Shown: positions 2,004-16,321 of the stretch, in pieces
Position numbering within the stretch: position 1 is the stretch's first letter
Layout: each line of letters starts with the position of its first letter
IMG/VR virus record: IMGVR_UViG_3300012663_000801
Span: 32,955 to 96,954 of that record
Source: a virus
Length of the DNA: 64,000 bases
Direction: 5' to 3' (one strand)
Notes under the pieces: model-generated
Told to the model about the DNA's origin: nothing
The model's input: only the letters and a program-made list of their open reading frames with translations
Databases searched by the model: none
Program-made: the position numbers and the translations under genes

Positions 2004-2011
2004 TTTTCTGC

Positions 2012-2040
2012 TTGACTCACTCTTTTTAACTCTTCAAAAT
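2012..2040 (+). promoter_or_regulatory. Sigma70-type promoter TTGACT-N17-CAAAAT
   Basis: Canonical spacing; same CAAAAT hexamer as the repeat units; ATG 9 nt downstream. Confidence 0.7.
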
Positions 2041-2049
2041 ATCACTACT

Positions 2050-2376: not shown

Positions 2377-2397
2377 AAACTACACTAAAATACTGCC

Positions 2398-2640: not shown

Positions 2641-2661
2641 AAACTACACCAAAATACTGCC

Positions 2662-2790
2662 ATGAGAACAAACGAATTGTTTGAAACGCTGCAAAATCTG
2701 CTCATTCTCTCCCTGATACTGTTCACCATCTTAGTGGGAATGGCAATCGGCACCCTTGTGACTGCGATCATCGGGTCTCTTGCCCAATAA
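2662..2790 (+). CDS. Small membrane protein, 42 aa (MRTNELFETLQNLLILSLILF...)
   Basis: ATG at +24 of unit 2638; one long hydrophobic segment. Confidence 0.75.
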   Translation: MRTNELFETLQNLLILSLILFTILVGMAIGTLVTAIIGSLAQ

Positions 2791-2811
2791 AAACTACACC
2801 AAAATCGCTGC

Positions 2812-2922
2812 ATGCAATTCCTACTCACGCTCTGCGTCACATTCATTGCCATTGGAACTCGAAGTCTGATCATGTATGTGTTCGCTGCCATCCTCTGGTA
2901 TCTCGTCGTTGTTAAAAACTAA
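2812..2922 (+). CDS. Small membrane protein, 36 aa (MQFLLTLCVTFIAIG...)
   Basis: ATG at +24 of unit 2788; hydrophobic. Confidence 0.7.
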   Translation: MQFLLTLCVTFIAIGTRSLIMYVFAAILWYLVVVKN

Positions 2923-2936
2923 ACCAAAATACTGCC

Positions 2937-3230
2937 ATGTCGAAACCATACATGACCATCAATTCCGAAGGTAACACGCTCTACTTCAAGGACAAGGGGA
3001 TGACCATTCCCCACCGGGAAGACGGTCCCGCTGTTGAGTGGCCCAATGGGCACAAGGTTTGGTATGTCAATGGCAAGCGTCATCGTGAAGATGGCCCTGC
3101 GATTGAACACGCCAACGGTGGGAAGTATTGGTATCAGAACGATGTCCTCCACCGTGAAGATGGCCCTGCGATTGAACACGCCAATGGGAACAAAGCATGG
3201 TTCCTGAATGGCCGCGAAGTTAAAAACTAA
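2937..3230 (+). CDS. HREDGPA-repeat protein
   Basis: Three HREDGPA(V/I)E repeats at about 23-aa period. Confidence 0.85.
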   Translation: MSKPYMTINSEGNTLYFKDKGMTIPHREDGPAVEWPNGHKVWYVNGKRHREDGPAIEHANGGKYWYQNDVLHREDGPAIEHANGNKAWFLNGREVKN

Positions 3231-3244
3231 ACCAAAATACTGCC

Positions 3245-3457
3245 ATGTCCAAACCGAAGTTCAAATCATTCCTTCTCACCAAGACTCATGTGACCGCAAT
3301 GGTGAAAGCCATGAAGCAAGCGGGCCTGCGCGTCGTGGAAGACAAGTCCGCTGGCACTGTCCAAGCGTTTTATGGTGAGCACGAAGTTTATGCAGCAATC
3401 GAGAAGGGGCACAATCAGCCTTGGATCGTGCGCCATGTCGAGAACCTGTTCGACTGA
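3245..3457 (+). CDS. Hypothetical protein, 70 aa
   Basis: ATG at +24 of unit 3221. Confidence 0.8.
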   Translation: MSKPKFKSFLLTKTHVTAMVKAMKQAGLRVVEDKSAGTVQAFYGEHEVYAAIEKGHNQPWIVRHVENLFD

Positions 3458-3487
3458 TCAACACGGGGGAAGCGCATCCTACACGCT
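3458..3487 (+). repeat. 30-nt intergenic element TCAACACGGGGGAAGCGCATCCTACACGCT, copy 1 of 3 (others 5279-5308, 8081-8110)
   Basis: Copies differ by one base from this one; each abuts a TAAAAACT unit. Confidence 0.95.
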
Positions 3488-3511
3488 TAAAAACTTCAGC
3501 AAAATACTGCC

Positions 3512-3694
3512 ATGACCAAGAAGCACTTCGAGTTTATCGCCTCCACCATCGAGTCCATGCCATCCTTTTCCGCCACTCTGAGGGCACAGAAGCTCTCCTG
3601 CGCGAACACCTTCGCCGATGCCTTCGCCAAGGAGTTCCCGCGATTTGATCGGGACAAGTTCCTGCAAGCCTGCGGTGTCTATTACTTTCAATGA
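3512..3694 (+). CDS. Conserved phage hypothetical protein (MTKKHF...PRFDRDKFLQAC)
   Basis: ATG at +24 of unit 3488; PRFD..RF..AC-type motif familiar from phage early proteins. Confidence 0.8.
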   Translation: MTKKHFEFIASTIESMPSFSATLRAQKLSCANTFADAFAKEFPRFDRDKFLQACGVYYFQ

Positions 3695-3697
3695 GTG

Positions 3698-3748
3698 CAT
3701 GGCAAAGTCCCCTCTCTCTGGTGGTTCGGAGAGAGGGGCAACCCTTTT
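3698..3748 (+). terminator. Hairpin family B, copy 1 (copy 2 at 6001-6052)
   Basis: CCCCTCTCTCTG-GTGGTT-CGGAGAGAGGGG vs CCTCCCTCTCTG-GTGGTT-CGGAGAGGGAGG, compensatory changes, short T run after. Confidence 0.7.
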
Positions 3749-3774
3749 AAAAACTACAGCAAAATCATGGCACC

Positions 3775-4122
3775 ATGAAAGTCCGTGTTTACTTCAACCT
3801 GCACAAGAAACTCCTTTCGATTCAAACGAAAGTGAATGGCGCGTGGAAGGTGATCAGCCACCGCCAGAGCGTTAGCCTGTCCGATGTCACCTTCAAGGTG
3901 TCGGAGCGTGGTCGCCAGCGGGTGATCAAGAACAAGCGGAAGAACGTCCACGCCTACATCTGCGGCACCCTCAACGATGAACTGGTGAACGAGAGCGGGA
4001 TGGACCCGATCATCTACAACCCCTACAAGTTCGAGCGTTTCTTCAATGGTGAGCGATACGTGGACACCGCTGAAAGGGTCTTCATCGATGGTCGCAAGGT
4101 TTACGCCGCGAACGCCCAATAA
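3775..4122 (+). CDS. Conserved phage hypothetical protein (VYFNLHKK...KRKNVHAY...YNPYK)
   Basis: ATG at +27 of unit 3748; familiar phage family motifs. Confidence 0.85.
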   Translation: MKVRVYFNLHKKLLSIQTKVNGAWKVISHRQSVSLSDVTFKVSERGRQRVIKNKRKNVHAYICGTLNDELVNESGMDPIIYNPYKFERFFNGERYVDTAERVFIDGRKVYAANAQ

Positions 4123-4143
4123 AAACTACAGCAAAATACTGAC

Positions 4144-4281
4144 ATGCGCCAACGCTACTTCCTCTGGAACCTGCCACTCATCGACGGTGGCGAAATGATC
4201 ATCATCCACGAAATCACCCGGAACAACAACAAGGTGACCGGGTTCATCAACCACCGCTTCACCTTCCCGAAGGACCAATAA
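4144..4281 (+). CDS. Hypothetical protein, 45 aa (MRQRYFLWNLP...)
   Basis: ATG at +24 of unit 4120; stop overlaps next unit. Confidence 0.75.
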   Translation: MRQRYFLWNLPLIDGGEMIIIHEITRNNNKVTGFINHRFTFPKDQ

Positions 4282-4305
4282 AAACTACACCAAAATACCC
4301 CTGCC

Positions 4306-4539
4306 ATGAAAAACAAATTCCGCAACCAAGACGGCACGATCACCTCTTATTCATTCGCCTGTGGATACGTTGAAAGATACGGAAACTGGGATATTCCACG
4401 GGCCACAATTTCCCGCGAGGCCAATGGCTACCATGTCAAAGGGTTCGACAAGGACGGGAAACACTTCTGGGAAATCGTGGACAAGGTGAAGGACGCCAGA
4501 GCGATTGCCCGCAAGCAAGGGGGGAAGCTGAACAAATAA
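4306..4539 (+). CDS. Hypothetical protein, 77 aa
   Basis: ATG at +27 of unit 4279. Confidence 0.8.
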   Translation: MKNKFRNQDGTITSYSFACGYVERYGNWDIPRATISREANGYHVKGFDKDGKHFWEIVDKVKDARAIARKQGGKLNK

Positions 4540-4563
4540 AAACTACAGGAGAATAGCTGCACT

Positions 4564-4779
4564 ATGGAACACTTTCTAACTGAACAGCAAAAACATATCA
4601 TCTATCAGGAATATCGCAGTTATGATTGCGCAATGAGCGATCCATGGCGCAATGACTTTTCTGATGATGGGCAAGCGGATGATGAATGGAGACGGGAAAA
4701 CATGCTGGAAAATATCCGCGAGCAAATGCCCGAAATTCCCCTCGAAATGATTGAGGACGAAATTGACAGAATTTCTTGA
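4564..4779 (+). CDS. Acidic hypothetical protein, 71 aa
   Basis: ATG at +27 of unit 4537. Confidence 0.8.
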   Translation: MEHFLTEQQKHIIYQEYRSYDCAMSDPWRNDFSDDGQADDEWRRENMLENIREQMPEIPLEMIEDEIDRIS

Positions 4780-4816
4780 AATCTTCTGATAAAAACTACA
4801 GCAAAATAACGCTGCC

Positions 4817-4969
4817 ATGCAGAACAACATGCTATTCACTGTCAGCGGGGAAGTCCTCGCCTATGCCGTCACAAGGGATGCGGCAATCGCCATCTCGAAT
4901 TTCGCTCGTCGCCCCGTTCGCTGGGGGGATGAATTGATCGGAGGAGAATACGTCGGATGCGTCGGATAA
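4817..4969 (+). CDS. Hypothetical protein, 50 aa (MQNNMLFTVSG...)
   Basis: ATG at +27 of unit 4790; stop overlaps next unit. Confidence 0.75.
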   Translation: MQNNMLFTVSGEVLAYAVTRDAAIAISNFARRPVRWGDELIGGEYVGCVG

Positions 4970-4993
4970 AAACTACAGTAAAATAACGCTGCC

Positions 4994-5275
4994 ATGAAGA
5001 CCAAGAAAGAAATCAAGCTCAAGGACGGTTCCACTCTTCCCAAGGGACTCCGCGTCACGTTCATCGAGGACAAGCCCACCCGATGCCTTGTCCACTCGCC
5101 TGCTCATCCGGCACCGCTGCAAGTGCGGATCACCAGCGCGTTTCACGCCCCATCATACGAGAGGATGGAAGGCTGGGGCTGCATCTGCAAGACTCCCACC
5201 GGGCAGACTGTCGAGCCTGACGGCTACGGGGAAGACGGAAGCCCTTCGTGGCTGATCGTTCTCGGTCTGATCTGA
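4994..5275 (+). CDS. Hypothetical phage protein (VEPDG...PSWLIVLGLI)
   Basis: ATG at +27 of unit 4967. Confidence 0.85.
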   Translation: MKTKKEIKLKDGSTLPKGLRVTFIEDKPTRCLVHSPAHPAPLQVRITSAFHAPSYERMEGWGCICKTPTGQTVEPDGYGEDGSPSWLIVLGLI

Positions 5276-5332
5276 TACTCAACACGGGGGAAGCGCATCC
5301 GACACGCTTAAAAACTACAGTAAACTCCCGCC

Positions 5333-5407
5333 ATGCCTGACCTCACCAACCTCAACGACGCAGACCTGCAAGACCTCATCGACTTCCTCGCAGGTGTGAC
5401 AAAATGA
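5333..5407 (+). CDS. 24-aa peptide MPDLTNLNDADLQDLIDFLAGVTK
   Basis: ATG at +24 of unit 5309; resembles N-terminus of 8588-8728. Confidence 0.6.
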   Translation: MPDLTNLNDADLQDLIDFLAGVTK

Positions 5408-5460
5408 CGCACCTGACCGAAACCCGCCTGTAAAAACTACACTAAACTTTTGCCACGACC

Positions 5461-5676
5461 ATGAAAATCAACTGCATCGACATCGAATGGGACACAGACG
5501 GAGACGAAGAAATCCTTGCCACTCTTCCGACCGAAGTGATCGTTGACCTCAACGAAATCGAAGGCTTTGAGGATGAAGATGTTACAGAGGAAAACTCTTC
5601 CGATATTGCGGACTATCTTTCGGACGAATACGGGTTCTGCATCTTCAGCTTCAACTATCAAACGCTCAATTCCTGA
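5461..5676 (+). CDS. Highly acidic protein, 71 aa
   Basis: IEWDTDGDEE...IADYLSDEYGFC; follows unit 5431. Confidence 0.85.
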   Translation: MKINCIDIEWDTDGDEEILATLPTEVIVDLNEIEGFEDEDVTEENSSDIADYLSDEYGFCIFSFNYQTLNS

Positions 5677-5715
5677 CCACCCGCTTTTAAAAACTTCAGC
5701 AAAATCGCTACCGAC

Positions 5716-5997
5716 ATGAGACTCATCACCAAGAAAATCCACCTCGCCTTCTTCGCAGGCCGCGCCCTCACCCTCGGCAACACCCGCACAGACGGCAACA
5801 GCGTCTGGCTCCACGGCAACAAGATCGTGGAGATGCGCGAGGACGGCGTTTACGCTACCCTCGCAGGCTGGAACACTCCCACGACTCGGGAGCGCGTGAA
5901 CGGCATCACGGGTGCCCGGTTCAGCCAGAAAAATTTCACCCCGCACTTGGACGGGAAGCCAATCGACGCAAACGAATGGCACAAGGTTCTAGGCTGA
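5716..5997 (+). CDS. Conserved phage hypothetical protein (LHGNKI...AGWNTPTTRERVN)
   Basis: ATG at +28 of unit 5688. Confidence 0.85.
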   Translation: MRLITKKIHLAFFAGRALTLGNTRTDGNSVWLHGNKIVEMREDGVYATLAGWNTPTTRERVNGITGARFSQKNFTPHLDGKPIDANEWHKVLG

Positions 5998-6079
5998 AGT
6001 CATGGCAAAAGTCCTCCCTCTCTGGTGGTTCGGAGAGGGAGGCATCTCTTTTAAAAACTTGAGTAAGATCCCTACCGAC

Positions 6080-6352
6080 ATGAACGACACGCTCGCTACC
6101 CTGATCCGCTCCATCCCGCTCATCACCCGTTTCGAGGAGAACGGTGTGATTCGGGAATATCCCGCTCGCTTCCACTTTGTGGAAGCAGAGGTCAACCCGG
6201 CCTTCGGACCAGTCCAAGAACACCTCGCTCTGGTGGACGAAAGCGGTGGCGACCCCGCCCTGCTCTTCGATGCTAGCACCATCAAAACCAACGGCGACTG
6301 GTTCACCTTCGAGGACTCGCTCCACGGCACGGTCGAGTTCAAGCCAGCCTAA
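6080..6352 (+). CDS. Hypothetical protein, 90 aa (MNDTLATLIRS...)
   Basis: ATG at +28 of unit 6052; the track start at 6002 runs through a hairpin and promoter unit. Confidence 0.8.
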   Translation: MNDTLATLIRSIPLITRFEENGVIREYPARFHFVEAEVNPAFGPVQEHLALVDESGGDPALLFDASTIKTNGDWFTFEDSLHGTVEFKPA

Positions 6353-6359
6353 CAATCCA

Positions 6360-6400
6360 GCCCCCAGTGTTCACCTGAGCACTGGGGGCTTTTCTCTTTT
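6360..6400 (+). terminator. Hairpin/terminator family A, copy 1 of 5 (others about 6962, 7647, 8738, 9123)
   Basis: GCCCCC(A/G)GTGTTCA...CAC(T/C)GGGGGC plus T-tract; A-T to G-C covariation between copies. Confidence 0.85.
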
Positions 6401-6426
6401 AAAAACTTCACCAAAATAGCTGCGCC

Positions 6427-6648
6427 ATGATTCCTACCACTTACTACTGCCCGATCCGCTCGAACACTTTCGAGGTCCAAATCATTGAGGTGAAGTCCCA
6501 CTGGGCATGTGCAGCTTTTGCACGCTTCCGCTGCCTGATCGGTGTGTGGAACTTCAACTGCACCTCGTTCATCGACATTGCCCAAGGCAATGGCATGACC
6601 GAGAAAGAGGCTTTCGACGCTGCCGTTAAAGACGCACAGGGAGTCTGA
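6427..6648 (+). CDS. Hypothetical protein, 73 aa
   Basis: ATG at +27 of unit 6400. Confidence 0.75.
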   Translation: MIPTTYYCPIRSNTFEVQIIEVKSHWACAAFARFRCLIGVWNFNCTSFIDIAQGNGMTEKEAFDAAVKDAQGV

Positions 6649-6687
6649 TCACCCCGCTTTTAAAAACTTCACCAAAATAGCTGCACC

Positions 6688-6954
6688 ATGACAACGCTCA
6701 TTACCGGAAACACCTACCCCGTCCGCGACCAAATCAAAGCCCTCGGTGGTCGCTGGAATGCACCACGTAAGGGCTGGGAAGTCCCCAACGACAAGGCCGA
6801 CGAAGCCCGCGCCATCGTGGCGGATGCACCCGTCAACTACCGCTCGCGCTCCCGCTACGTGTCCGACACGTTCAAGACCAGCGGCGGCACGTTCTACCGC
6901 AACCGCAACGGACGATGCGAGGATGCACCCTGCTGCGGCTGCTGCACCTTCTGA
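6688..6954 (+). CDS. Phage protein with TYPVRDQIKALGGRW domain and C-terminal RCEDAPCCGCC metal-binding motif
   Basis: Motifs in translation; ATG at +27 of unit 6661. Confidence 0.85.
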   Translation: MTTLITGNTYPVRDQIKALGGRWNAPRKGWEVPNDKADEARAIVADAPVNYRSRSRYVSDTFKTSGGTFYRNRNGRCEDAPCCGCCTF

Positions 6955-7028
6955 TTCAATCGCCCCCAGTGTTCACCTGAGCACTGGGGGCTTTTTTCAT
7001 TTAAAAACTTCGACAAAATAGCTGCGCC

Positions 7029-7073
7029 ATGAAGCCCACCCTACACGAAACCCACAAAGGAGGTGCCCAATGA
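7029..7073 (+). CDS. 14-aa uORF MKPTLHETHKGGAQ coupled to 7070-7267
   Basis: ATG at +27 of unit 7002; contains AAGGAGGT; ATGA overlap with next ORF. Confidence 0.6.
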   Translation: MKPTLHETHKGGAQ

Positions 7074-7267
7074 TTCGCGCCTTCGATTCAAGGGGTCGCG
7101 AAGTGTTCCTGCGTCCGGGTCGAATCCTTCCAGAGGGAACGATCACCCAGCGCGGGAATGATTTCCAGACTCTGGAAACTCCGGTGGTTTACCGGAAAAG
7201 TCGAGTCTGGAACACGCTGACCCAATCGTGGGACGAATCGGAAGATCTGATCCCAATTGAGAAATAA
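7070..7267 (+). CDS. Hypothetical protein, 65 aa
   Basis: Strong Shine-Dalgarno AAGGAGGT upstream. Confidence 0.8.
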   Translation: MIRAFDSRGREVFLRPGRILPEGTITQRGNDFQTLETPVVYRKSRVWNTLTQSWDESEDLIPIEK

Positions 7268-7291
7268 AAACTTGAGTAAGATCCTGCTGCC

Positions 7292-7639
7292 ATGAGCACC
7301 ACCACCACCATCGTCACCAAGCAGTCCCTCCTCGAAATGCTCACCGCCTCCCGCGAGCGTCAAGCTCAGGTTGTCGGTCGCGCCCTCGTCGCTCTCTTCC
7401 TTCGCCAGACGGAGGATGAGAAGGACGCCAACAAAACGAACCACGACAACGATGTCGGGTTCCAGCACTCGGACGCCAAGAGGGGCAGCATCACCGCCAA
7501 GTATTTCCTGAAGCACCGCACGCTTCAGGACTGGCAGATCGAGCCTTGGCTTGCCCCACAGGGTGCCAAGGGCTATCCTCGGATTGCCAAGTATTCGCGC
7601 CAGCTGAACGAAATCGCCCTCGAAAAGCGCAAGGGCTGA
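7292..7639 (+). CDS. Conserved phage hypothetical protein (RQTEDEK...NDVGF...D)
   Basis: ATG at +27 of unit 7265. Confidence 0.85.
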   Translation: MSTTTTIVTKQSLLEMLTASRERQAQVVGRALVALFLRQTEDEKDANKTNHDNDVGFQHSDAKRGSITAKYFLKHRTLQDWQIEPWLAPQGAKGYPRIAKYSRQLNEIALEKRKG

Positions 7640-7713
7640 TTCAATCGCCCCCGGTGTTCAAACGGACACCGGGGGCTTTTTTCATTTAAAAACTTCGCCA
7701 AAATACCCCTGCC

Positions 7714-8079
7714 ATGAAAACATACCAAGTTCGCTACAACGGAAAGCAGACCACAGCCCTCTGGATCGCGGAGGGCTGGATCATCGACGGTGCCCTCGTC
7801 CCTACCGGGGCAGCGGCAATCCTCAATCCCTACGTCACCCGCGCCCAGATCTGGGAGTGGTATGGCGAAGAGGAACACGTTGGTGACCCCGCCTTCGGTC
7901 GCTACAAGGCCAAGGGTGGGCAAGACTTCATCGTTCACCTGACCACTGAGCAGGCATACGATGAGGAAGCGGTCCTCGCGAAGCTCAACGAGCGGCTGAA
8001 CACGAACGGGAAATGGACCCGGTTCGAGTTCAAGGGTGAACTCGAATACTACTTCGAGCCAACGGTGGTGGAACTGTGA
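7714..8079 (+). CDS. Hypothetical protein, 121 aa
   Basis: ATG at +27 of unit 7687. Confidence 0.85.
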   Translation: MKTYQVRYNGKQTTALWIAEGWIIDGALVPTGAAAILNPYVTRAQIWEWYGEEEHVGDPAFGRYKAKGGQDFIVHLTTEQAYDEEAVLAKLNERLNTNGKWTRFEFKGELEYYFEPTVVEL

Positions 8080-8137
8080 ATCAACAAGGGGGAAGCGCAT
8101 CCTACACGCTTAAAAACTTCGCCAAAATAGCTACGCC

Positions 8138-8362
8138 ATGATCGACCACATCACCACTGGCCCTCTCGCTGGGCACTTCACCCTCAATGGGTCCACTGAC
8201 TTCGCTGGAGATGTCCTCCAGTTGTTCCGGGATGGCGTGAAAGCCACCCCAAAAGCCCGCGTCCTGCTTTCTAAGTGGGCGAAGGAAGCCGATGCCCAAG
8301 CGGCAGCCAATGAGAAGGCATGGGACGAATTCAACGCCCATTACCCGTTTGGCGTTTATTAA
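8138..8362 (+). CDS. Hypothetical protein, 74 aa
   Basis: ATG at +27 of unit 8111. Confidence 0.8.
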   Translation: MIDHITTGPLAGHFTLNGSTDFAGDVLQLFRDGVKATPKARVLLSKWAKEADAQAAANEKAWDEFNAHYPFGVY

Positions 8363-8386
8363 AAACTTCGCCAAAATAGCTACGCC

Positions 8387-8566
8387 ATGAACATCATCAT
8401 CCTTGCCATCACAATCGCCTTCGTCGCCCCTGCCCTCGCCACCCGTGCGGCTGGGTCCAGCATCGTGGACTCCATCACCGCAGGGGTCGCAGGCGTCGGC
8501 ATCGGCGTCCTTCTCTACACCGCTGCCGTGCTGGCAGCAGCCTTCGGGCACGTTACCGCTCTGTAA
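8387..8566 (+). CDS. Two-TM membrane protein, 59 aa (MNIIILAITIAF...)
   Basis: ATG at +27 of unit 8360; stop overlaps next unit. Confidence 0.8.
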   Translation: MNIIILAITIAFVAPALATRAAGSSIVDSITAGVAGVGIGVLLYTAAVLAAAFGHVTAL

Positions 8567-8587
8567 AAACTTGGGTAAACTCCTGCC

Positions 8588-8728
8588 ATGCCTGACAACC
8601 TCACCGCCGCCGAGCTTGACGAGCTTATCGCCAAGCTCGCCCCCGTGACGCTCACCGCTTCCGCCATCGACCCCGCCCTCTTCGGACCAACAGCCCCCAG
8701 CGGGCTGCGTCTCGTCAGCGAAGCCTGA
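8588..8728 (+). CDS. Hypothetical protein, 46 aa (MPDNLTAAELDELIAKLAP...)
   Basis: ATG at +24 of unit 8564. Confidence 0.75.
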   Translation: MPDNLTAAELDELIAKLAPVTLTASAIDPALFGPTAPSGLRLVSEA

Positions 8729-8801
8729 TTCAATCCAGCCCCCGGTGTTCACCCAAGCACCGGGGGCTTCCTTTTAAAAACTTGGGTAAACTGTTACTAC
8801 C

Positions 8802-9116
8802 ATGAACCTGATCAACCTCACGCCCCACGCCATCAACGAAGTCACAACCGGGAGCACATTCGCTCCATCGGGCACTGTCGCCCGAGTGTCCACCAGCCTC
8901 GCCCCCCTTGGCGAGGTCAACGGAATCCCCTTGTTCTCAAGGGCTTTCGGAGAGGTCATCGGCCTCCCAGCCCCTGCCGAGGGTGTCCTGCTCATCGTCT
9001 CGGCCCTCGTGGCTGATGCCAGCCCTGACAGGCTGGATCTCGTCAGCCCCGGCGAATTGGTCAGGGATGACAAGGGCCAGCCCGTGGGCTGCAAGGGCTT
9101 TGTCCGCAAAGCCTGA
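8802..9116 (+). CDS. NLTPH-family small protein, possible Crn4-like ring nuclease
   Basis: LINLTPH, PSGTVARV, GLPAP..GVLLIVS, DLVSPGELVRD..G..VGC; family link is from recall only. Confidence 0.55.
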   Translation: MNLINLTPHAINEVTTGSTFAPSGTVARVSTSLAPLGEVNGIPLFSRAFGEVIGLPAPAEGVLLIVSALVADASPDRLDLVSPGELVRDDKGQPVGCKGFVRKA

Positions 9117-9122
9117 CTCTCA

Positions 9123-9167
9123 GCCCCCGGTGTTCACCTGAACGGTGGACGCCGGGGGCTTTTTTTT
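9123..9167 (+). terminator. Strong intrinsic terminator closing the array
   Basis: GCCCCCGGTGTTCACC...GGTGGACGCCGGGGGC followed by T8. Confidence 0.9.
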
Positions 9168-9363
9168 GGCTTTCGTTTTTGTAGTTTTTAACAGAGCTTG
9201 ATAAAAACTAGGGGGTCTGTTTGGATTTGCTTTAGTTTTTAAAAGGGGGTCGGGGGGTGGTGGGGGCCATGGCCAAAAATATTTATTTTATAAAATTCTT
9301 AAAATCTGCCTATTGAAAAAAATTTTTTTTTCTAAAATTCTCCCGATTTTCCCTATAGGGAAT

Positions 9364-10686
9364 TTATCTATTACTCATTAAATTCAATATAGCTTTTTTA
9401 TGGTTTGAAGGGAGCTTGAGAAATTCCTCCACTCCCGTTGCCCATAACTCATCATCATTTGCCATGCCATAGGAGTCTACCCACTTTACCAAATCTCTCA
9501 TTTCTTCGCGATATGGGGATTTGTCATTCCCTACCAACTTGTCTTCGGATTGGGGGAAATTTTTTTGAGTTAATGTATTTTCAAAAATATTATATACAAA
9601 ATTTATTATCATCATAACGATTCCATATCTATTATTATCTAATTCATCAAATTTATTACTAACTTCCGTATAAGAATCATCATTAGCGAATATAAAATTC
9701 TCGTTATGTTTTGTTTCACTTAATAGATAATTAGAAATGGATTCAAATTCTGATACCCAATCTTCTCCATCTTCCTTCGCCCACTTCCAATCACCCTCAT
9801 CCGCTTCCACTGAACGTTTTATATTCTTTATTAATTTTTCATAAAATAATTTTGTTAAGGCATTACTTAGATAATTGAGTTGTTTCTTATAAATTTTCAT
9901 ATCAACATACCAGAACTGTGATTTGGTTTGCATATCACTAATTATTTTTAATATTAATGCTCTAGTTTTGAATTTAAAATTATCTCTCCAAGAATTGATG
10001 TATGTTTTTTCATCTTCTTTCCATGGAGAATCGTCATCATTATATTTGTTTATAACGTATCCTTGGTAGATGTTTCTGACGATATACATCATTTCTCTGA
10101 CCACCTCATTCCATATTGTATCACTATAATTACGACCCAATAATTTTTCTGTTTGTTCAAAACTTTTAATTTTTGTTATGTGTTTAAATGGTTCTTTTTC
10201 TCTTTCTTTTTGTGCCACGGCGAAATTTGTTTTGTATTGGTTCAATAGAGTATTGTAGTATTCCTTTACTGCCATTTTGAATCCTTTGGAATTGTTGAAC
10301 ATCCATAGGTGCGCCCATTCATGGACTATAACCTTTATTAGATAATTTGGTTTGTTAATTTGATTCAATCCAACTGTCATGTATTTCCCTTTGCGGTGTG
10401 CATAACCCCCAACTCCTCCTCCTGAAACCCAATTTACTTCCTCTGATAAGTTTTTGATGAGAATGTTTGCATGCATGGAAGGAAAACCCATCTTGGTGAT
10501 TATCTTTCTTGCTTCCGTGCAAGCGTCCGTTATTTTTTCTTTTAATTCATTCATGCTCTCTACTTTATCCGCATCATCTTTAAAAAGATAAACAGTAAAC
10601 ATAGGTAACTTTGTGATGGGGATCACCTTTTTTGATTGGGAGAATTTTGCTTCTCTTATTAAAAAGTATTCTTTGAAAGATATCAT
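9364..10686 (-). CDS. Zincin-like metallopeptidase with capsid-targeting-like N-terminus
   Basis: VIVHEWAHLW (HExxH); distal SYGMANDDELWA; MISFKEYFLIRE; TAAATA-N5-ATG. Confidence 0.75.
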   Translation of the reverse strand: MISFKEYFLIREAKFSQSKKVIPITKLPMFTVYLFKDDADKVESMNELKEKITDACTEARKIITKMGFPSMHANILIKNLSEEVNWVSGGGVGGYAHRKGKYMTVGLNQINKPNYLIKVIVHEWAHLWMFNNSKGFKMAVKEYYNTLLNQYKTNFAVAQKEREKEPFKHITKIKSFEQTEKLLGRNYSDTIWNEVVREMMYIVRNIYQGYVINKYNDDDSPWKEDEKTYINSWRDNFKFKTRALILKIISDMQTKSQFWYVDMKIYKKQLNYLSNALTKLFYEKLIKNIKRSVEADEGDWKWAKEDGEDWVSEFESISNYLLSETKHNENFIFANDDSYTEVSNKFDELDNNRYGIVMMIINFVYNIFENTLTQKNFPQSEDKLVGNDKSPYREEMRDLVKWVDSYGMANDDELWATGVEEFLKLPSNHKKAILNLMSNR

Positions 10687-10730
10687 TCTATTATTTAATT
10701 TTTTTTCCCAATTCTCCCGATTCGACCGTA

Positions 10731-10757
10731 TAAAAACTACGGTATAATCCTGACATG
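10731..10757 (+). promoter_or_regulatory. Array-type promoter unit with perfect TATAAT (further TATAAT copies at 10899 and 11444)
   Basis: TAAAAACTACGGTATAATCCTGACATG. Confidence 0.85.
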
Positions 10758-10901
10758 AATAAAGACAAACTGCTCATCGCTGTAATTATTGCATCTGCCA
10801 TCATTCCCATCATGTATTTCCTGACGCAGTTATCGCCTCTTGAAACTCGCCAATACAATGGTAAGAATTCTTGCAAATGTGGTTGCCACTGTGACGGATA
10901 A
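10755..10901 (+). CDS. Small membrane protein with Cys-rich tail, 48 aa
   Basis: MNKDKLLIAVIIASAIIPIMYFL...SCKCGCHCDG; ATG at +24. Confidence 0.7.
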   Translation: MNKDKLLIAVIIASAIIPIMYFLTQLSPLETRQYNGKNSCKCGCHCDG

Positions 10902-10989
10902 AAACTACAGTATAATGATGGCAGATCACGACGGCAACAAACCGAACACGATCTTCGAAATTTAAAAAATAAAAAAGTTCTTAATGATG

Positions 10990-11018
10990 TTGACAAATGA
11001 AAATCTCATGATTAAATA
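10990..11018 (+). promoter_or_regulatory. Composite promoter TTGACA-N17-TAAATA upstream of tRNA-Met
   Basis: Perfect -35 plus late-type box; same arrangement on minus strand at 21889-21917. Confidence 0.7.
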
Positions 11019-11028
11019 CTAACTCAAT

Positions 11029-11105
11029 CGCGGGTTAGACAGGAGGTGGTTCCTGCCGGGTTTCATAAGCCTAGTACGTCGGTTCGACTCCGACACCCGC
11101 TACCA
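11029..11105 (+). tRNA. tRNA-Met(CAT), initiator-like
   Basis: CGCGGG acceptor with unpaired C1, TTCATAA loop, GGTTCGACTCC, encoded CCA. Confidence 0.85.
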
Positions 11106-11106
11106 A

Positions 11107-11181
11107 GCGTTCTTGATGTAATGGTTAACATGCCCTCCTTCCAAGTGGGTTACGAGAGTTCGAGTCTCTCAGAGCGCACCA
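11107..11181 (+). tRNA. tRNA-Gly(TCC)
   Basis: Cloverleaf, CTTCCAA loop, encoded CCA. Confidence 0.9.
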
Positions 11182-11196
11182 TTTTAAATCAATCGA

Positions 11197-11460
11197 ATGA
11201 GAATAACATATAAAGAAACAACAGAGTCCTTTTCACCTATTCCTCTTGTTTCCATCTTTTATGGAATATTTTATAAAGATGGTGTTGAATTTGTTCGTAT
11301 TAAGGATTCATTTGTATACGGTTTTAAAATGTATTATAAAAATGATGATGATATGAAAACTGAAATGAAAAGGGTTTTGTTTCATGCATTGAATGATCCT
11401 TCTTTGGAGGATGAATTTTGGAAAGTGTTCGAAGAAAGGTTCTTAAAAACTAGACTATAA
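11197..11460 (+). CDS. Hypothetical protein, 87 aa
   Basis: ORF between tRNA blocks. Confidence 0.65.
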   Translation: MRITYKETTESFSPIPLVSIFYGIFYKDGVEFVRIKDSFVYGFKMYYKNDDDMKTEMKRVLFHALNDPSLEDEFWKVFEERFLKTRL

Positions 11461-11528
11461 TGAGGGCATGTAAAAAATTGAAGAAAATTCTTGAAAAAAG
11501 TTTTGATATTGCTAAGTATTACTACAGC

Positions 11529-11591
11529 ATGAAATACCAGCAATATAATCAAAACAAACCAGCGACACCGATTGGGTGGCGGCGTGGATGA
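11529..11591 (+). CDS. Leader peptide MKYQQYNQNKPATPIGWRRG
   Basis: 20 codons; 3' end is complementary to the 5' arm of the downstream terminator. Confidence 0.75.
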   Translation: MKYQQYNQNKPATPIGWRRG

Positions 11592-11619
11592 TTCTATTGT
11601 AAATCATATTGAATCTTGC

Positions 11620-11654
11620 GCCCCATCTCTTCCAAAGATGGGGTTTTTTATTTT
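11620..11654 (+). terminator. Intrinsic terminator (attenuator) ahead of main tRNA block
   Basis: CCCCATCT-CTTCCAA-AGATGGGG followed by TTTTTTATTTT. Confidence 0.9.
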
Positions 11655-11727
11655 AGGGGTGAACGAAGCGACCTGAACAGCTAGAGAGTGGTGAAAGACT
11701 AATAGAGAATACGGTAATATATTTTTT

Positions 11728-11802
11728 GGGTTCATAATTCAATGGTAGAATAACTCACTTTTAATGAGTAAGCTGAAGGTTCGAGTCCTTCTGGACCCAC
11801 CA
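11728..11802 (+). tRNA. tRNA-Lys(TTT)
   Basis: ACTCA-CTTTTAA-TGAGT, T-arm, CCA. Confidence 0.95.
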
Positions 11803-11815
11803 TATTTTTTTTAAT

Positions 11816-11891
11816 GCTCCTGTCGTCTAAAGGTTAGGACAAAGGATTTTCAATCCTTAGATCGTGGGTTCAAGTCCCCGTGGGAGCACCA
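11816..11891 (+). tRNA. tRNA-Glu(TTC)
   Basis: AAGGA-TTTTCAA-TCCTT, CCA. Confidence 0.9.
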
Positions 11892-11901
11892 TTTTTTAAA
11901 T

Positions 11902-11988
11902 GCGTTAGCGGCGAAGTAGGTGAGTCGCGGCGGTCTGTAAAACCGCAGCCTTCGGGCTAAGTAGGTTCGAACCCTACCTGACGCACCA
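11902..11988 (+). tRNA. tRNA-Tyr(GTA)
   Basis: GCGGT-CTGTAAA-ACCGC, long variable arm, CCA. Confidence 0.95.
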
Positions 11989-11991
11989 TAT

Positions 11992-12067
11992 CTTGGCGTA
12001 GCGCAATTGGTAGCGCGGGTAGTTTGGGACTATCAGGTTGTAGGTTCGAGTCCTACCGTCGAGACCA
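11992..12067 (+). tRNA. tRNA-Pro(TGG)
   Basis: GGTAG-TTTGGGA-CTATC, C1-G72, CCA. Confidence 0.95.
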
Positions 12068-12077
12068 TTTTTTTCAT

Positions 12078-12154
12078 GGGCCATTAGTTCAGCTGGTAGA
12101 ACGTCTGATTTGCATTCAGAATGTCATGAGTTCGAGTCTCATATGTGTCCACCA
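12078..12154 (+). tRNA. tRNA-Ala(TGC), one-base bulge in acceptor stem
   Basis: TCTGA-TTTGCAT-TCAGA, G3:U70, CCA. Confidence 0.9.
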
Positions 12155-12158
12155 TAAT

Positions 12159-12232
12159 TGGGGGTTGGTGTAATGGTAGCACCGCAGATTTTGATTCTGT
12201 TAGCGAGGGTTCGACTCCCTCATCCCCTGCCA
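12159..12232 (+). tRNA. tRNA-Gln(TTG)
   Basis: GCAGA-TTTTGAT-TCTGT, G73, CCA. Confidence 0.95.
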
Positions 12233-12241
12233 ATTTTCAAA

Positions 12242-12317
12242 TCCCAAGTAGCACAGCGGTAGTTGCGTTCGACTGTTAATCGAAATGTCGGTGGTTCGAT
12301 CCCACCCTTGGGAGCCA
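12242..12317 (+). tRNA. tRNA-Asn(GTT)
   Basis: TTCGA-CTGTTAA-TCGAA, G73, CCA. Confidence 0.95.
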
Positions 12318-12325
12318 GATATAAA

Positions 12326-12399
12326 GGCCCGGTAGTTAAATGGTAGAACAGTAGATTTGTAACCTTCAGACGAGAGTTCGATTCTCTCTCGGGCCTCCA
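12326..12399 (+). tRNA. tRNA with Thr anticodon (TGT) on a Cys-like acceptor
   Basis: TTTGTAA loop; anticodon stem has 2 mismatches; G1-C72, G2-C71, C3-G70, U73. Confidence 0.7.
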
Positions 12400-12409
12400 T
12401 TATTCATAT

Positions 12410-12486
12410 CCTCCTATAGCTCAGTTGGTTAGAGCACTCGTTTGATAAATGAGAGGTCGTTAGTTCAAGTCTAACTGGGAGGACCA
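12410..12486 (+). tRNA. tRNA-Ile(GAT)
   Basis: CTCGT-TTGATAA-ATGAG, CCA. Confidence 0.9.
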
Positions 12487-12489
12487 CTT

Positions 12490-12816
12490 ATGACACTAAA
12501 TGAATACGAACAATTCGCACTCTCCACAGCAATATACGGAGAGGGCCAAAAAATAACATATCCAACTCTGGGACTTGCTGGTGAATCTGGGGAAGTTGCA
12601 GATAAAGTTAAGAAGGTTTTGAGGGATTATGATGGTGTTTTCACCGATGAACTCAAGCTTAATATTGCCAAAGAGATTGGTGATGTCCTCTGGTATATCA
12701 CGGCATTGTCAAGAGACTTGGGTTTCTCGCTAGAGGAAGTGGCCAAGATGAATGTTGATAAATTGGAATCCAGAAGACAACGAAATGTGATTTCTGGTTC
12801 CGGTGATGATCGATAA
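12490..12816 (+). CDS. mazG: MazG-like NTP pyrophosphohydrolase
   Basis: LGLAGESGEVADKVKK...KEIGDVLWY. Confidence 0.9.
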   Translation: MTLNEYEQFALSTAIYGEGQKITYPTLGLAGESGEVADKVKKVLRDYDGVFTDELKLNIAKEIGDVLWYITALSRDLGFSLEEVAKMNVDKLESRRQRNVISGSGDDR

Positions 12817-12818
12817 AT

Positions 12819-12912
12819 GGATCGGTATGATCGGGCTGGGCTGATGATTACGCACCGAAGTGTAATAGCTTGTAAAAGTCTTAGGGAAGTTCGAATCTTC
12901 CGCCATCCGCCA
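12819..12912 (+). tRNA. Aberrant tRNA-Ser-like RNA
   Basis: GGA acceptor with bulge, G73-CCA, GGAAG-TTCGAAT-CTTCC T-arm, long variable arm, non-standard anticodon loop containing CGA. Confidence 0.6.
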
Positions 12913-12932
12913 ATTTTATATTAAATAATACC

Positions 12933-13406
12933 ATGAGAACCTTTTTAGAATCTTTCTATGATATTCAGGAATTGAAACCAAATTCCAAATTGAAAGATAT
13001 CATCAAACATCCTTATCTTAAAGTCTTTCGTTCTTCGGCTCGTCCCAATAAGAATGATTATGTATCGGGTTCTCATGCTGGGACGAAACAACAAGCTTTG
13101 ATTCGGGCCGATTATATGATAAATGATGAAGGTAGATACGATACCTATTATTTGTATGAATTGATTATTCGTATTGAAAATGTGTATCCCGAATTATTAC
13201 CCGATGATGGGACTGATCATGGATACGGATTTGTCAAGGATTTGAATAATTATGATGTCGCCTTTTACAAAAATACGGGAGAAGGTGATATCAGAAACGA
13301 GAATCTTTCAATTATCATTATCAATCCTGATAGTGTCTTCGAATCCAAGATGGTTGAAGAGATCGATGGGGAATATTTGACCGCTATTCAGGATGAATTA
13401 TACTAA
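12933..13406 (+). CDS. Putative ADP-ribosyltransferase (polyvalent-protein ART type)
   Basis: VFRSS...GSHAGTKQQALIR...DVAFYKNTGEG...SIIIINP pattern; TAAATA-N5-ATG. Confidence 0.55.
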   Translation: MRTFLESFYDIQELKPNSKLKDIIKHPYLKVFRSSARPNKNDYVSGSHAGTKQQALIRADYMINDEGRYDTYYLYELIIRIENVYPELLPDDGTDHGYGFVKDLNNYDVAFYKNTGEGDIRNENLSIIIINPDSVFESKMVEEIDGEYLTAIQDELY

Positions 13407-13414: not shown

Positions 13415-16321
13415 ATGAGAAGATTTCATGGATTGTATAAAAAGTTGATGGCGACATTATCTGAAGAGGTATGGCAACCATCGACTGTTATTGAGTTGGG
13501 GAATAAAAGAAAAAAATCAGATAGTGGATATTGCGAATATAACCCATTAATCAATAAATTTGCCATGGAAAATTCCGATAACTTGGCAATGGTATTTGCA
13601 TTTGTTTTCTATACTATTCAGACTGACTGGAACGTGGTTGTTGATAATTTTCCCCATTTCATAAAATGGTTCTATACAGAAGCAGTTAAGAAAAAAGGTA
13701 ATAAATTAATGGTTGATAGATCAGCTAAACCTCCGGGTATGGGTCATATGATGACATCCCCTAGTAAAAAATATAATGGGTTGGCTAGTGAAAGATTACA
13801 AAATTTATATGAAGTTTATGACAATAGACATAAAATATATGAAAATTTTGTTAAAAAAATTGATAATCCTAGAGAGTTATTCATCTATATTTTAAAAAAT
13901 ATAAAAGGCTTGGCAGCAGTAAAGGCTGGTTTCGTGGTTCAGTTGGTGACTGGTAGAATTGGTTGCATGGATAGTATAAATTCAAAAGTTTATACCGGAG
14001 ATATTACCGGATTCAATCCGAGTTCTAAAATTTCTAAAAATAAAGCAGGAGACTTTTCACCGAATACTTTAAAAAAAATCGACCAATATATTGAATATGT
14101 CGATCCTCTGAGTCAAATACTTTGGGATGATTGGTGTGAAATCGTTGAAAGTAAATTATTATATGCAATCCTAAAACCAAAGAAAGATGAAAAGGAAAGA
14201 GGTGAGCATAAAGTCATAGGAACCAGATTTAAAGATAACGATAATGTTATGACGCAAACATCGTATCTTTTAAATAAAAGAAAAGGAAACGCTGATAGTA
14301 TCGGAAAACACATTAAAAGATTGAATCAAGGTAAAGAAAAAGGTAAAGTTATATCTGGTGATCATTACAATGTTTTAAAGGACATAGAACAATACATGAG
14401 AAAAGAATCTTTCGATCAAGAATACGAGATGTTGATGCGTGAATATGTGGAAGATTTCGATCAAAAATGGACTAAAGCTGTTGACGATTCTGAAGAACTT
14501 AGAGTCGCACTTGATCTGATGCAGCAAATCAAATCAAAATTAAAGGGTGAGATTTATATTGTTGGTGGAGTTCCCCGTGATTTGCTTATGGGAAACGCGA
14601 TTGATGATGTGGATCTGGCTACCAACATTCCGGTTGAAGAGTTGGAGAAACATTTTGAATTGAGAAATATCTCCAAGAACGATTCACAACCAGTCTATGC
14701 TATTCTTTGGAAGGGATATGTGTATGATTTAGCGAAATTCAGAACAGACTCGGGTGACATCGGCAGACAAGCCAATGTTTCGACCGAGACAGATTCCTTT
14801 GAGAAAGATTCCGAGCGTAGGGATTTAACAATCAACTCCTTTGGATTGGACGAGAATGGAAAAATCGTGGATTATCAAGGTGGTCTCGATGATTTGAAAA
14901 ACAAAATCGTGCGTGCTGTCGGTGATGCCAAGAAAAGATTCTTGGAGGATGCGACGAGAATTCTTCGTGTTTTCCGTTTTGCCGCTAAAATGGATTTCGA
15001 AATTGAAGATAAAACCAAAAGAGCAGCAATTGAATTGAAACATTTGCTTCAAGATCCGAAGGCGATTTCCAAAGAAAGTATCTCAAAAGAATTTTACAAG
15101 TCTGCCAAGTCTGGTAGAACTCTCGCCAACTTCTTGAAGAAATTACAGGACACGAAAATCCTACATGATATCCTTCCTGAATTTACGGAGATGGAAGGTT
15201 TCGATCACGATCCAGAGCATCATCCTGAAGGTGAATCCCAAGTATTGGGACACATCTATGAGTGTTTGAATGCTTCCCCATACAAAGATCCAGTGATTAA
15301 TCTCGCAGTATTGTTCCACGATTTTGGCAAAGCCACTACAAGAGGACGAAAAGATAATGGATTCAGTAGCTATCATGGACACGAAGCTGCTGGTGTTCCT
15401 ATTGTCGAGAGAATATTCGAAAGATTGCGATTTGCCGAATTGTCTCAGCAAGATAAAAAGAACATCTTAGCGGCAGTGGATAAGCATATGCTTGTTCACA
15501 ATATCGATAAACTCAATATCAAAACGTTGACAAAGTTAATTCAAAATCCTGCATGGGAAACCATCAAAGCAGTTGGATATTGCGATGAAGCTTCTAGGGG
15601 ATCTGGTCTCTTCAATGAAAAAGAATTTTGGGACAAGATCAAAAGGGCTGAAGAAAAAGTTGCCAATATTGGAGGTTCCGAAGATGAAACCAGAAAGAGA
15701 CTCAAGCAATATTTCAGTGGTGATAAATTGATGAAATGGTTCCCAATTCTTGTCAAAGATAAATCAAAATTCAGAGAAATCACATCAGCACTTCAAGAAT
15801 ATACTTTAGAAGAATTGAATGCTGGTAGAGAACCGAATGAAGCGGAGATGAAGACGATTGTTTCTGGTATTCTGAAAGGAAATCAATTTAATGAGTGGGT
15901 TGCTATGTTTGAATCTTCTTTAAGAAAGAATGAAACCCATTTACCAGAAAATCCATTTGCTGTATTCGTGGTCCACCAATTTCCAAATGGTAAAATAGCG
16001 GCGACCACTAGACCAAAAGATAGAATGAAAGATGATGAAGGTTTGTCTTATGGACTTCCGGGTGGTAAGGTAGATCCCGGCGAAGATCCCATGGAAGCAG
16101 CTATCAGAGAATCAAAAGAAGAAGGTTGGAAGGTTTCTGGATTGACTCAAAAACATTCTGATATCGTTCAAGGTAAATTAGTGTGGTGGTATCACGCAAA
16201 ATCTGCTACTCCTTTACGGGAATACAAAGAAAAATATCGTGGTATTAAACCAATTCAAATTGGTATGGATCAATTAAAAGGATTTGGGAACGAAATCGCT
16301 ATTCCAAAATCATTGGAATAA
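13415..16321 (+). CDS. Fusion: HhH glycosylase-like domain + CCA-adding nucleotidyltransferase + HD phosphohydrolase + Nudix
   Basis: IKGLAAVKAGFVVQL..G..GCMDS; VGGVPRDLL..DDVDLAT, RRDLTINS, EDATRILR; HHPEG, LFHDFGK; Nudix box GGKVDPGEDPMEAAIRESKEEG. Confidence 0.9.
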   Translation: MRRFHGLYKKLMATLSEEVWQPSTVIELGNKRKKSDSGYCEYNPLINKFAMENSDNLAMVFAFVFYTIQTDWNVVVDNFPHFIKWFYTEAVKKKGNKLMVDRSAKPPGMGHMMTSPSKKYNGLASERLQNLYEVYDNRHKIYENFVKKIDNPRELFIYILKNIKGLAAVKAGFVVQLVTGRIGCMDSINSKVYTGDITGFNPSSKISKNKAGDFSPNTLKKIDQYIEYVDPLSQILWDDWCEIVESKLLYAILKPKKDEKERGEHKVIGTRFKDNDNVMTQTSYLLNKRKGNADSIGKHIKRLNQGKEKGKVISGDHYNVLKDIEQYMRKESFDQEYEMLMREYVEDFDQKWTKAVDDSEELRVALDLMQQIKSKLKGEIYIVGGVPRDLLMGNAIDDVDLATNIPVEELEKHFELRNISKNDSQPVYAILWKGYVYDLAKFRTDSGDIGRQANVSTETDSFEKDSERRDLTINSFGLDENGKIVDYQGGLDDLKNKIVRAVGDAKKRFLEDATRILRVFRFAAKMDFEIEDKTKRAAIELKHLLQDPKAISKESISKEFYKSAKSGRTLANFLKKLQDTKILHDILPEFTEMEGFDHDPEHHPEGESQVLGHIYECLNASPYKDPVINLAVLFHDFGKATTRGRKDNGFSSYHGHEAAGVPIVERIFERLRFAELSQQDKKNILAAVDKHMLVHNIDKLNIKTLTKLIQNPAWETIKAVGYCDEASRGSGLFNEKEFWDKIKRAEEKVANIGGSEDETRKRLKQYFSGDKLMKWFPILVKDKSKFREITSALQEYTLEELNAGREPNEAEMKTIVSGILKGNQFNEWVAMFESSLRKNETHLPENPFAVFVVHQFPNGKIAATTRPKDRMKDDEGLSYGLPGGKVDPGEDPMEAAIRESKEEGWKVSGLTQKHSDIVQGKLVWWYHAKSATPLREYKEKYRGIKPIQIGMDQLKGFGNEIAIPKSLE

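Follow-up and report, generated by a model that had tools for sequence, protein, structure and literature searches.

Within the window, by which we mean the whole 64,000-nucleotide stretch analysed here (bases 32955-96954 of the 96,954-base-pair IMG/VR virus record IMGVR_UViG_3300012663_000801, estimated to be 71% complete), a block of nine transfer RNA (tRNA) genes is preceded by a short leader open reading frame (ORF) and an intrinsic terminator. These elements probably constitute a ribosome-mediated (leader-peptide) transcription attenuator that controls the entry of RNA polymerase into the phage tRNA operon. This attenuator would be of a known kind, the leader-peptide kind, newly applied to tRNA genes: no paper that describes leader-peptide attenuation upstream of tRNA genes, or control of this sort, turned up in a full-text literature search. 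Phage tRNA genes are usually viewed as constitutive aids to codon usage or as spares against tRNA-cleaving defences and, to our knowledge, the control of their expression is largely unknown. If our reading is right, this would be the first case known to us of classical attenuation controlling tRNA genes, with feedback at the level of tRNA abundance, and about 170 nucleotides (nt) would make up a compact sensor of decoding capacity for many tRNA species together. It would also show how a phage deploys counter-defence only when needed. Moreover, the content of the leader would predict which host tRNAs the phage expects to lose and could guide the search for matching host nucleases.

Geometry of the leader and its competing helices

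The leader ORF, its TGA stop codon and the terminator pointed out in an earlier note on this DNA were all found (Table 1), and ARAGORN agrees with that note on the nine tRNA genes downstream of the switch and on tRNA-Met and tRNA-Gly upstream of it. Codons 16-20 and the stop codon form the 5' strand of an antiterminator, for which the count given there (18 pairs, 13 of them Watson-Crick and 5 G-U, with two bulges) was reproduced exactly. Of the folds of the nascent RNA, this antiterminator (-20.5 kcal/mol) has the lowest energy; the terminator hairpin folds at -13.8 kcal/mol. A third helix, the segment 1:2 hairpin, would act as an anti-antiterminator. Its core is a 4-pair stem around a 5-nt loop, and it is present in the minimum-energy fold of the free RNA of all versions of the element. 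Several features of the attenuator class are present, among them a conserved leader ORF, an intrinsic terminator and a mutually exclusive antiterminator whose 5' strand would lie under a ribosome that has reached the stop codon.

Seven further sequence versions were found in related uncultured phages by searching IMG/VR and metagenome contigs with two probes, the downstream MazG gene (relatives 79-42% identical) and conserved DNA words of the spacer that precedes the tRNA block. These versions are L002 (genome G004), L052, L153 (also L161/L154, which are G005, and L166), L155, L167, L169 (G006) and L164; some of them occur on several contigs. Together with that of the window, they make eight versions and six leader types. 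A first scan with a 14-base pattern returned nearly all chance matches and two later scans added no members. In all eight versions the ORF starts with the ATG, ends with the TGA and is 20-21 codons long; the sole indel within it in their alignment (A2) is one of 3 nt.

The same alignment argues for conservation of the competing helices. Antiterminator pairing is kept in 99% of the cells, as against 45-65% in slid controls, with two pairs altered on both sides (in L164) and four altered on one side. The double-sided changes of L164 modify the tail of the peptide (Arg to Cys and Glu to Lys); since the pairing is kept while the peptide tail is altered, it is the RNA, not the peptide, that is conserved there. 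The terminator is paired in 100% of the cells, and one of its pairs shifts from C-G through U-G to U-A. For the 1:2 helix, 81% of the cells are paired (29-56% in slid controls) with little covariation (one covarying pair). The RNAalifold consensus independently recovers the antiterminator core and the small 1:2 hairpin. The conservation of these parts in eight versions, the compensatory changes in both competing helices and the agreement of constrained folds all support the trp/his-type geometry that the earlier note had recognized.

In these constrained folds, computed at equilibrium with a ribosome footprint of 30 nt, the terminator was given a probability of 0.93-0.99 in the free RNA and of 0.89-1.0 with a ribosome on the stop codon. 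This value fell to 0.0-0.06 in the window when the A site was placed at codons 10-12, and to 0.01-0.29 in L002 with the A site at codons 11-13. Intermediate values were obtained at codons 13-14 and in the L052, L153 and L164 types. The equilibrium model thus predicts that transcription terminates on the free RNA and with a ribosome on the stop codon, and that it reads through with a ribosome inside the leader, opening of the gate being restricted to a ribosome at codons 10-14.

We propose the following mechanism. RNA polymerase would initiate at a host-type promoter (11491-11518) located only a few bases ahead of the ATG. The leader would therefore be translated as a nearly leaderless messenger RNA (mRNA), which also appears to hold for most genes of this phage. 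A ribosome running to the TGA would cover 11574-11594 and prevent formation of the antiterminator; the terminator would form and transcription would stop before the tRNA genes. With no ribosome on the RNA, segment 1 would pair with segment 2 and the terminator would form as well. With a ribosome still inside the leader, segment 1 would be covered, 11574-11594 would pair with 11611-11628, and the polymerase would continue past the terminator into the nine tRNA genes and, probably, mazG. An A site at about codons 10-14 would favour this read-through most. Since the body of the leader consists only of codons read by the tRNAs of the block, the speed of the ribosome would report the supply of those species, and the products of the operon would relieve the signal, making a feedback loop on tRNA supply. 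We infer from the sequence that the leader is translated, where its promoter and start site lie and that the switch responds to a shortage of tRNA. The trigger may be host anticodon nucleases, the loss of host tRNA synthesis or the A/T-rich codon demand of the phage.

The enterobacterial attenuators (trpL, hisL, pheL and leuL, and the multivalent thrL and ilvL) have a leader whose stop region overlaps segment 2, alternative 1:2, 2:3 and 3:4 helices, and an intrinsic terminator before the structural genes. Their regulatory codons are cognate to the end product of the operon, and thr and ilv sense several amino acids. The phage element shares this geometry but gates tRNAs instead of enzymes, hence the loop would close at the tRNA and not at the amino acid. 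Furthermore, its leader contains eight to ten codon families, each one to three times, instead of runs of one or two; it is phage-borne, its mRNA would be nearly leaderless, it has no Shine-Dalgarno sequence and it has no sequence or Rfam relationship with the enterobacterial leaders. The pheM attenuator of pheST in E. coli, which encodes phenylalanyl-tRNA synthetase, senses the supply of charged tRNA by means of a leader peptide, and is likewise a case of attenuation applied to the translation apparatus. However, it concerns one synthetase and one amino acid, whereas tRNA genes and many tRNA species would be involved here. T-box elements, which control genes for tRNA charging and amino-acid supply, also report tRNA status by a choice between terminator and antiterminator. 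They bind uncharged tRNA directly, through Stem I and a bulge of the antiterminator, without translation. In contrast, the phage element has no T-box match and no room for Stem I, and has a conserved ORF instead.

This comparison bears on whether the element could be an untranslated RNA switch, in which a protein or an uncharged tRNA (in a T-box-like manner) would bind the G-rich 5' strand and stabilise the antiterminator, the ORF being unread. The 5' strand of the antiterminator loosely resembles the T-box motif, and enzymes that handle tRNA are encoded nearby, including a CCA-adding/HD/Nudix fusion. Nevertheless, a search of positions 10500-13000 against Rfam (cmscan, E <=1) gave only tRNA matches and chance hits, with no Trp, His, Thr, Leu or Phe leader and no T-box. 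Moreover, the distance of about 45 nt between the predicted transcription start and the antiterminator is too short for Stem I. The reading frame is conserved together with its ATG, its TGA and the 3-nt indel, and the codon content is non-random. We consider this explanation very improbable.

The tRNAs that decode NAN codons (Lys, Glu, Gln, Asn and Tyr) are classical targets of anticodon nucleases. Clusters of phage tRNA genes in T4, T5 and their relatives have been reviewed in connection with tRNA depletion (PMC12482277). The block analysed here resembles these T4/T5-type clusters in that its tRNA genes are grouped near tRNA-repair functions; it differs in its codon-matched leader and terminator, and we found no report of regulation of such clusters by this means. 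The leaders of inducible resistance genes (ermC, cat, bmrCD and msrD) also act through the position of a stalled ribosome that remodels the downstream RNA (PMC4191407, PMC10314930). Stalling there depends on the drug and the peptide, whereas in the phage element it would be expected to depend on codon and tRNA.

Codon content of the leader and tRNA content of the block

The gated block encodes tRNA-Lys (UUU), Glu (UUC), Tyr (GUA), Pro (UGG), Ala (UGC), Gln (UUG), Asn (GUU), Thr (UGU) and Ile (GAU). As had been noticed before, leader codons 2-15 are all decoded by these nine tRNAs (14/14), eight of which are sampled. This match exceeds chance. The 18 codons covered by the block account for 42.6% of the codons in long ORFs, which gives p ~6e-6 for 14 consecutive ones. 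The leader is the sole run of at least 12 block-readable codons in the six frames of the 96,954-bp record, and shuffled genomes contain 0.01 covered runs of at least 14 codons. When the 42 nt of the window leader were shuffled, a procedure that controls for its richness in A and C, full coverage was reached about 7 times in 100,000 (7e-5). Given the base composition of the leader itself, full coverage has p ~5e-5 to 2e-4, and complete sampling of the block tRNAs, taken alone, has p = 0.01-0.2. As a control, six unrelated or distantly related tRNA clusters in the fetched loci were considered; the covered runs upstream of them reach just 1-4 codons.

Four lineages were counted as having intact tRNA blocks, those of the window, L002, L052 and L155. 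All codons of the leader body are read by the block in L002 (15/15, ACT requiring a U34:U reading), L052 (14/14) and L155 (14/14), and every tRNA of the block is sampled (10/10, 8/8 and 8/8, respectively). Furthermore, some differences between leaders go along with differences between blocks. The ATT codon (Ile) occurs only in the window and L002, which are the sole lineages with a block ending in tRNA-Ile; the blocks of the other lineages lack this tRNA, and their leaders have AAT at the corresponding codon (TAT in L164). Similarly, the TCA codon occurs only in L002, the sole block with tRNA-Ser (UGA). In G004, ten tRNA genes lie outside the gated block (His, Ser GCU, two Leu, Ile UAU, two Met, Cys, Val and Gly) and none of them is sampled in the leader body. 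The earlier note had suggested looking for co-variation of leader codons with tRNA content. It is seen for the gains of Ile and Ser and in the disregard of these ten other tRNAs, but it does not extend to recent losses, as described below.

Observations that weigh against attenuation, and other readings

Several observations tell against the attenuator reading or against parts of it. The first ones come from the folds. A hard arrest at codons 2-8 leaves the terminator at 0.7-0.98, and the claim of the earlier note that a stall at any depleted codon would allow read-through is not supported in that form. In addition, the predicted opening is only partial (0.33-0.68) in the L153, L167 and L052 types. 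At equilibrium, the role of sensor would fall to about five codons (Lys, Pro/Ser/Ala, Ala/Thr, Thr/Ala and Pro). Any contribution of the early codons would have to come from slow decoding that delays the arrival of the ribosome. In a kinetic version of this kind, the leader would work as a checklist: each codon of its body would add a delay tied to one of the 8-10 gated tRNA species, and the position of the ribosome at the moment the polymerase arrives at the terminator would sum their supply. The loop would be self-correcting: cleavage of host tRNAs by anticodon nucleases, or their exhaustion after host shut-off, would switch on the replacement tRNAs (with MazG in the lineage of the window), and restoration of the supply would switch them off. 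We consider this version slightly less likely than not.

Other observations concern the codons. The genome G004, which is complete (197.7 kb, 36.8% G+C), more A/T-rich than the window phage and provided with ten gated families, contains 33 covered runs of at least 12 codons, hence the run in the leader is not unique there. From five runs of at least 15 in about 395,000 codon positions, as against about 300 start positions just 5' of the block, we estimate the chance of the G004 match at about 1 in 1,000, a value that is specific to the location and does not express uniqueness in the genome. Moreover, the leaders do not track recent tRNA losses, and relatives with blocks eroded by HNH endonuclease insertions keep the old leader. 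Thus, G005 has no tRNA-Ala anywhere in its 89%-complete record and its leader retains two Ala codons; G006, L166, L167 and L164 have no tRNA-Tyr and their leaders retain two Tyr codons. The leader of L164 also has one AGC codon. The co-variation amounts to just two gain events (Ile and Ser) among leaders that are all of one origin, and is suggestive, not conclusive.

The persistence of unaltered leaders after tRNA losses fits another reading, in which the attenuator is real but reads the general translation status, with read-through upon ribosome slowing of whatever cause (host shut-off, ribosome-targeting defence or antibiotics, starvation), and the codon match is a side effect. An A-rich unstructured 5' part would give NAN codons, and pairing of a C-rich segment 1 with a G-rich segment 2 would give NCN codons. 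The block tRNAs indeed read the NAN and NCN columns plus Ile, the second codon position is the least variable (4 columns, versus 15 for the first and 9 for the third), and the Pro-Ala-Thr-Pro codons are the partner in 1:2 pairing. However, shuffles of the leader's own bases are almost never fully covered, as reported above, and codons for Asp and His, which are also NAN, are absent from every leader body, GAT being the second commonest codon of the phage. Furthermore, Ile and Ser codons appear only alongside their tRNAs, and in three of the four intact lineages no tRNA of the block goes unsampled. We regard this reading as unlikely.

The remaining observations concern the non-coding spacer between the terminator and tRNA-Lys. 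It is the most conserved non-coding stretch, above the leader itself in conservation, and all eight versions share its 23-nt core unaltered except L169, which carries one change. The earlier note had named an independent promoter in 11655-11727 that drives the tRNAs among the findings that would refute attenuation, and a promoter-like element, AAAGACT followed by a good hexamer (GAGAAT), is present there. It is a one-mismatch copy of AAAAACT, the promoter box of this phage. About 75 invariant AAAAACT boxes occur in the record (in the window, from 291 to 11445 on the + strand, e.g. 10732, 10900 and 11445), each followed after 4 nt by a -10-like hexamer and, 6-9 nt later, by an ATG. The spacer element may serve as a second promoter, weak or active only under certain conditions, or as an operator, or it may have another role. 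If it is an active promoter, the terminator would not be the sole gate, and the tRNA genes may have an entry that bypasses it. It does not explain the switch upstream.

The locus as a whole could also be an ordinary boundary between transcription units: the terminator would end the early transcript of tRNA-Met, tRNA-Gly, the 87-codon ORF and the leader, the tRNA genes would be driven by AAAGACT/GAGAAT, and the leader ORF would be incidental or an independent micropeptide gene. The spacer element matches a real box promoter (window 17428, minus strand) at 17 of 20 bases, the AAAGACT variant is kept in all relatives, all of them AAAAACT users, and conservation ends right past the hexamer, as expected of a promoter. 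In addition, tRNA-Ile (UAU) and tRNA-Leu (CAA) of the record lie directly behind box promoters. Against this, the box is invariant in all of the functional copies (about 75 in the record, dozens in the relatives), and the other one-mismatch copies neither look functional nor have the layout of promoter plus ATG. Moreover, this explanation leaves out the compensatory pairing between the ORF tail and the terminator arm, the fixed ATG, TGA and length, and the codon statistics, and a second promoter would not exclude attenuation of read-through. Hence, it seems rather improbable to us that a unit boundary is all there is.

Other interpretations of the spacer were considered. The element at 11655-11714 occurs once in the record, contains no conserved ORF in either orientation and shows no covariation; a repeated class of promoter was rejected on the first count and a structured RNA is not supported on the last. 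A minus-strand ORF of 43 codons that spans the spacer lacks a start in the L153, L167 and L164 types.

Promoters, gene neighbourhood and relatives

Table 1. Positions in the window of the putative attenuator and of the features that surround it
Feature	Coordinates	Strand	Description
Sigma-70-like promoter	10990..11018	+	TTGACA, 17 nt, TAAATA; read from sequence; precedes tRNA-Met/tRNA-Gly, outside the switch
tRNA-Met (CAU) and tRNA-Gly (UCC)	11029..11181	+	ARAGORN, Rfam tRNA model; 5' of the switch, outside its control
87-codon ORF	11197..11460	+	Occurs in the window and L002 only
Phage-type promoter	11445..11473	+	AAAAACT box, 4 nt, TATAAT; window and L002 only; putative second transcription entry into the leader
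Leader promoter-like pair	11491..11518	+	TTGAAA (11491-11496), 16 nt, TAAGTA (11513-11518); TAAATA in relatives
Leader ORF	11529..11594	+	ORF 11529-11591 (20 codons), TGA 11592-11594; sequence reading
Segment 1:2 hairpin (predicted anti-antiterminator)	11540..11600	+	Codons 4-14 pair with codons 15-20 and the stop region
Antiterminator (predicted)	11574..11628	+	11574-11594 paired with 11611-11628, including the complete 5' arm of the terminator
Intrinsic terminator	11620..11654	+	9-pair stem 11620-11644, 7-nt loop, T-run to 11654
Conserved non-coding spacer	11655..11727	+	73 nt; AAAGACT (11694-11700), 4 nt, GAGAAT (11705-11710)
Nine-tRNA gated block	11728..12486	+	ARAGORN; Rfam tRNA model, 47-73 bits
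MazG-like pyrophosphatase gene	12490..12816	+	Begins 4 nt past tRNA-Ile; without a promoter box of its own

In the alignment of the putative leader promoter, the first box is invariant, one of the six columns of the second box is variable, and 12 of the 16 columns of the spacing between them are variable at constant length. The TAAGTA box ends 10-11 nt before the ATG, which predicts a 5' untranslated region of about 2-5 nt. The leader has no Shine-Dalgarno sequence, a lack that is normal in this phage since it hardly uses them, as its two other kinds of start illustrate. Each of the early AAAAACT cassettes heads a short gene and has neither a -35 box nor a Shine-Dalgarno sequence, and the corresponding mRNAs appear to be leaderless; this system is also present in L002/L157 and L052. 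TAAATA followed after 4-6 nt by an ATG occurs at 32 sites of the record, with a 5-nt spacing in most of the late-type genes checked. Such sites are located 5' of 12933, 13415, 22036, 23905 and 24842 (+) and of many minus-strand genes, and would be T4-late-like promoters whose transcripts begin at the ATG or right beside it.

A start-stop mini-ORF, ATG TAA (11468-11473), lies exactly where the box promoter at 11445 would set a leaderless start; L002 has ATG CAA TAA at this position. An extension of the leader to 43 codons, from an in-frame ATG at 11460 that overlaps the stop of the 87-codon ORF, was rejected, since L002 has a one-base indel and no in-frame ATG and the equivalent frame of L052 contains two TAA codons. 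Likewise, an apparent run of synonymous changes just 5' of the ATG between the window and L002 fails in L052 and is a coincidence.

Sequence comparisons place the source among distant, uncultured T4-like phages: it encodes a portal protein and a gp23-like head protein, the latter only 32% identical to gp23 of T4-like cyanophages. A blastn search of 50,697 phage records revealed no cultured relative of the locus. In a pattern scan of the whole record, box pairs of the TTGACA/TAAATA type, that at 10990-11018 included, are rare (10 in 97 kb, both strands). The 87-codon ORF has no match to a PHROG family and no relatives were found; in the versions that lack it, the leader promoter is directly 3' of tRNA-Gly.

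On the other side of the block, mazG probably shares a transcription unit with the tRNA genes. The sole Shine-Dalgarno-like bases in front of it fall within the 3' end of tRNA-Ile. Shortly past it (13415-16321) is the gene of a 968-residue CCA-adding nucleotidyltransferase, whose Nudix part is C-terminal. Together, the tRNAs, MazG and this enzyme look like a neighbourhood for tRNA supply and repair. The tRNA-Ile (UAU) and tRNA-Leu (CAA) mentioned above are located 5' of the window (record 26845-26941 and 27781-27902), with no attenuator ahead of either. The former starts 6 nt past the hexamer of its box promoter and its primary transcript may start at the mature 5' end; the latter has a box promoter of its own.

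Two more distant relatives, L003 and L004 (MazG 72-73% identical), have neither leader nor terminator, and strong sigma-70 promoters are found within their larger tRNA arrays. Among the closer relatives, HNH endonuclease-like ORFs are inserted among the tRNA genes of the gated block, for instance in L174 (1525-2112, -) and L155 (979-1650, +). One insertion takes the place of tRNA-Ala (G005) and others accompany the loss of tRNA-Tyr (G006, L166, L167 and L164). The first tRNA of the L164 block is a hybrid gene (3629-3705, -) whose first 7 bases are those of tRNA-Asn and the remainder those of tRNA-Lys, with an acceptor stem that is unable to pair; Rfam matches positions 7-64 of the model only and ARAGORN does not call it. 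It looks like the result of a deletion through the identical D-arms of the two tRNAs. In L167, the tRNA at the Thr position (651-726, +) has the anticodon UGA instead of UGU and a 4-nt duplication in its variable region, and is otherwise identical to tRNA-Thr of L175; it may correspond to an anticodon switch or to a decaying gene.

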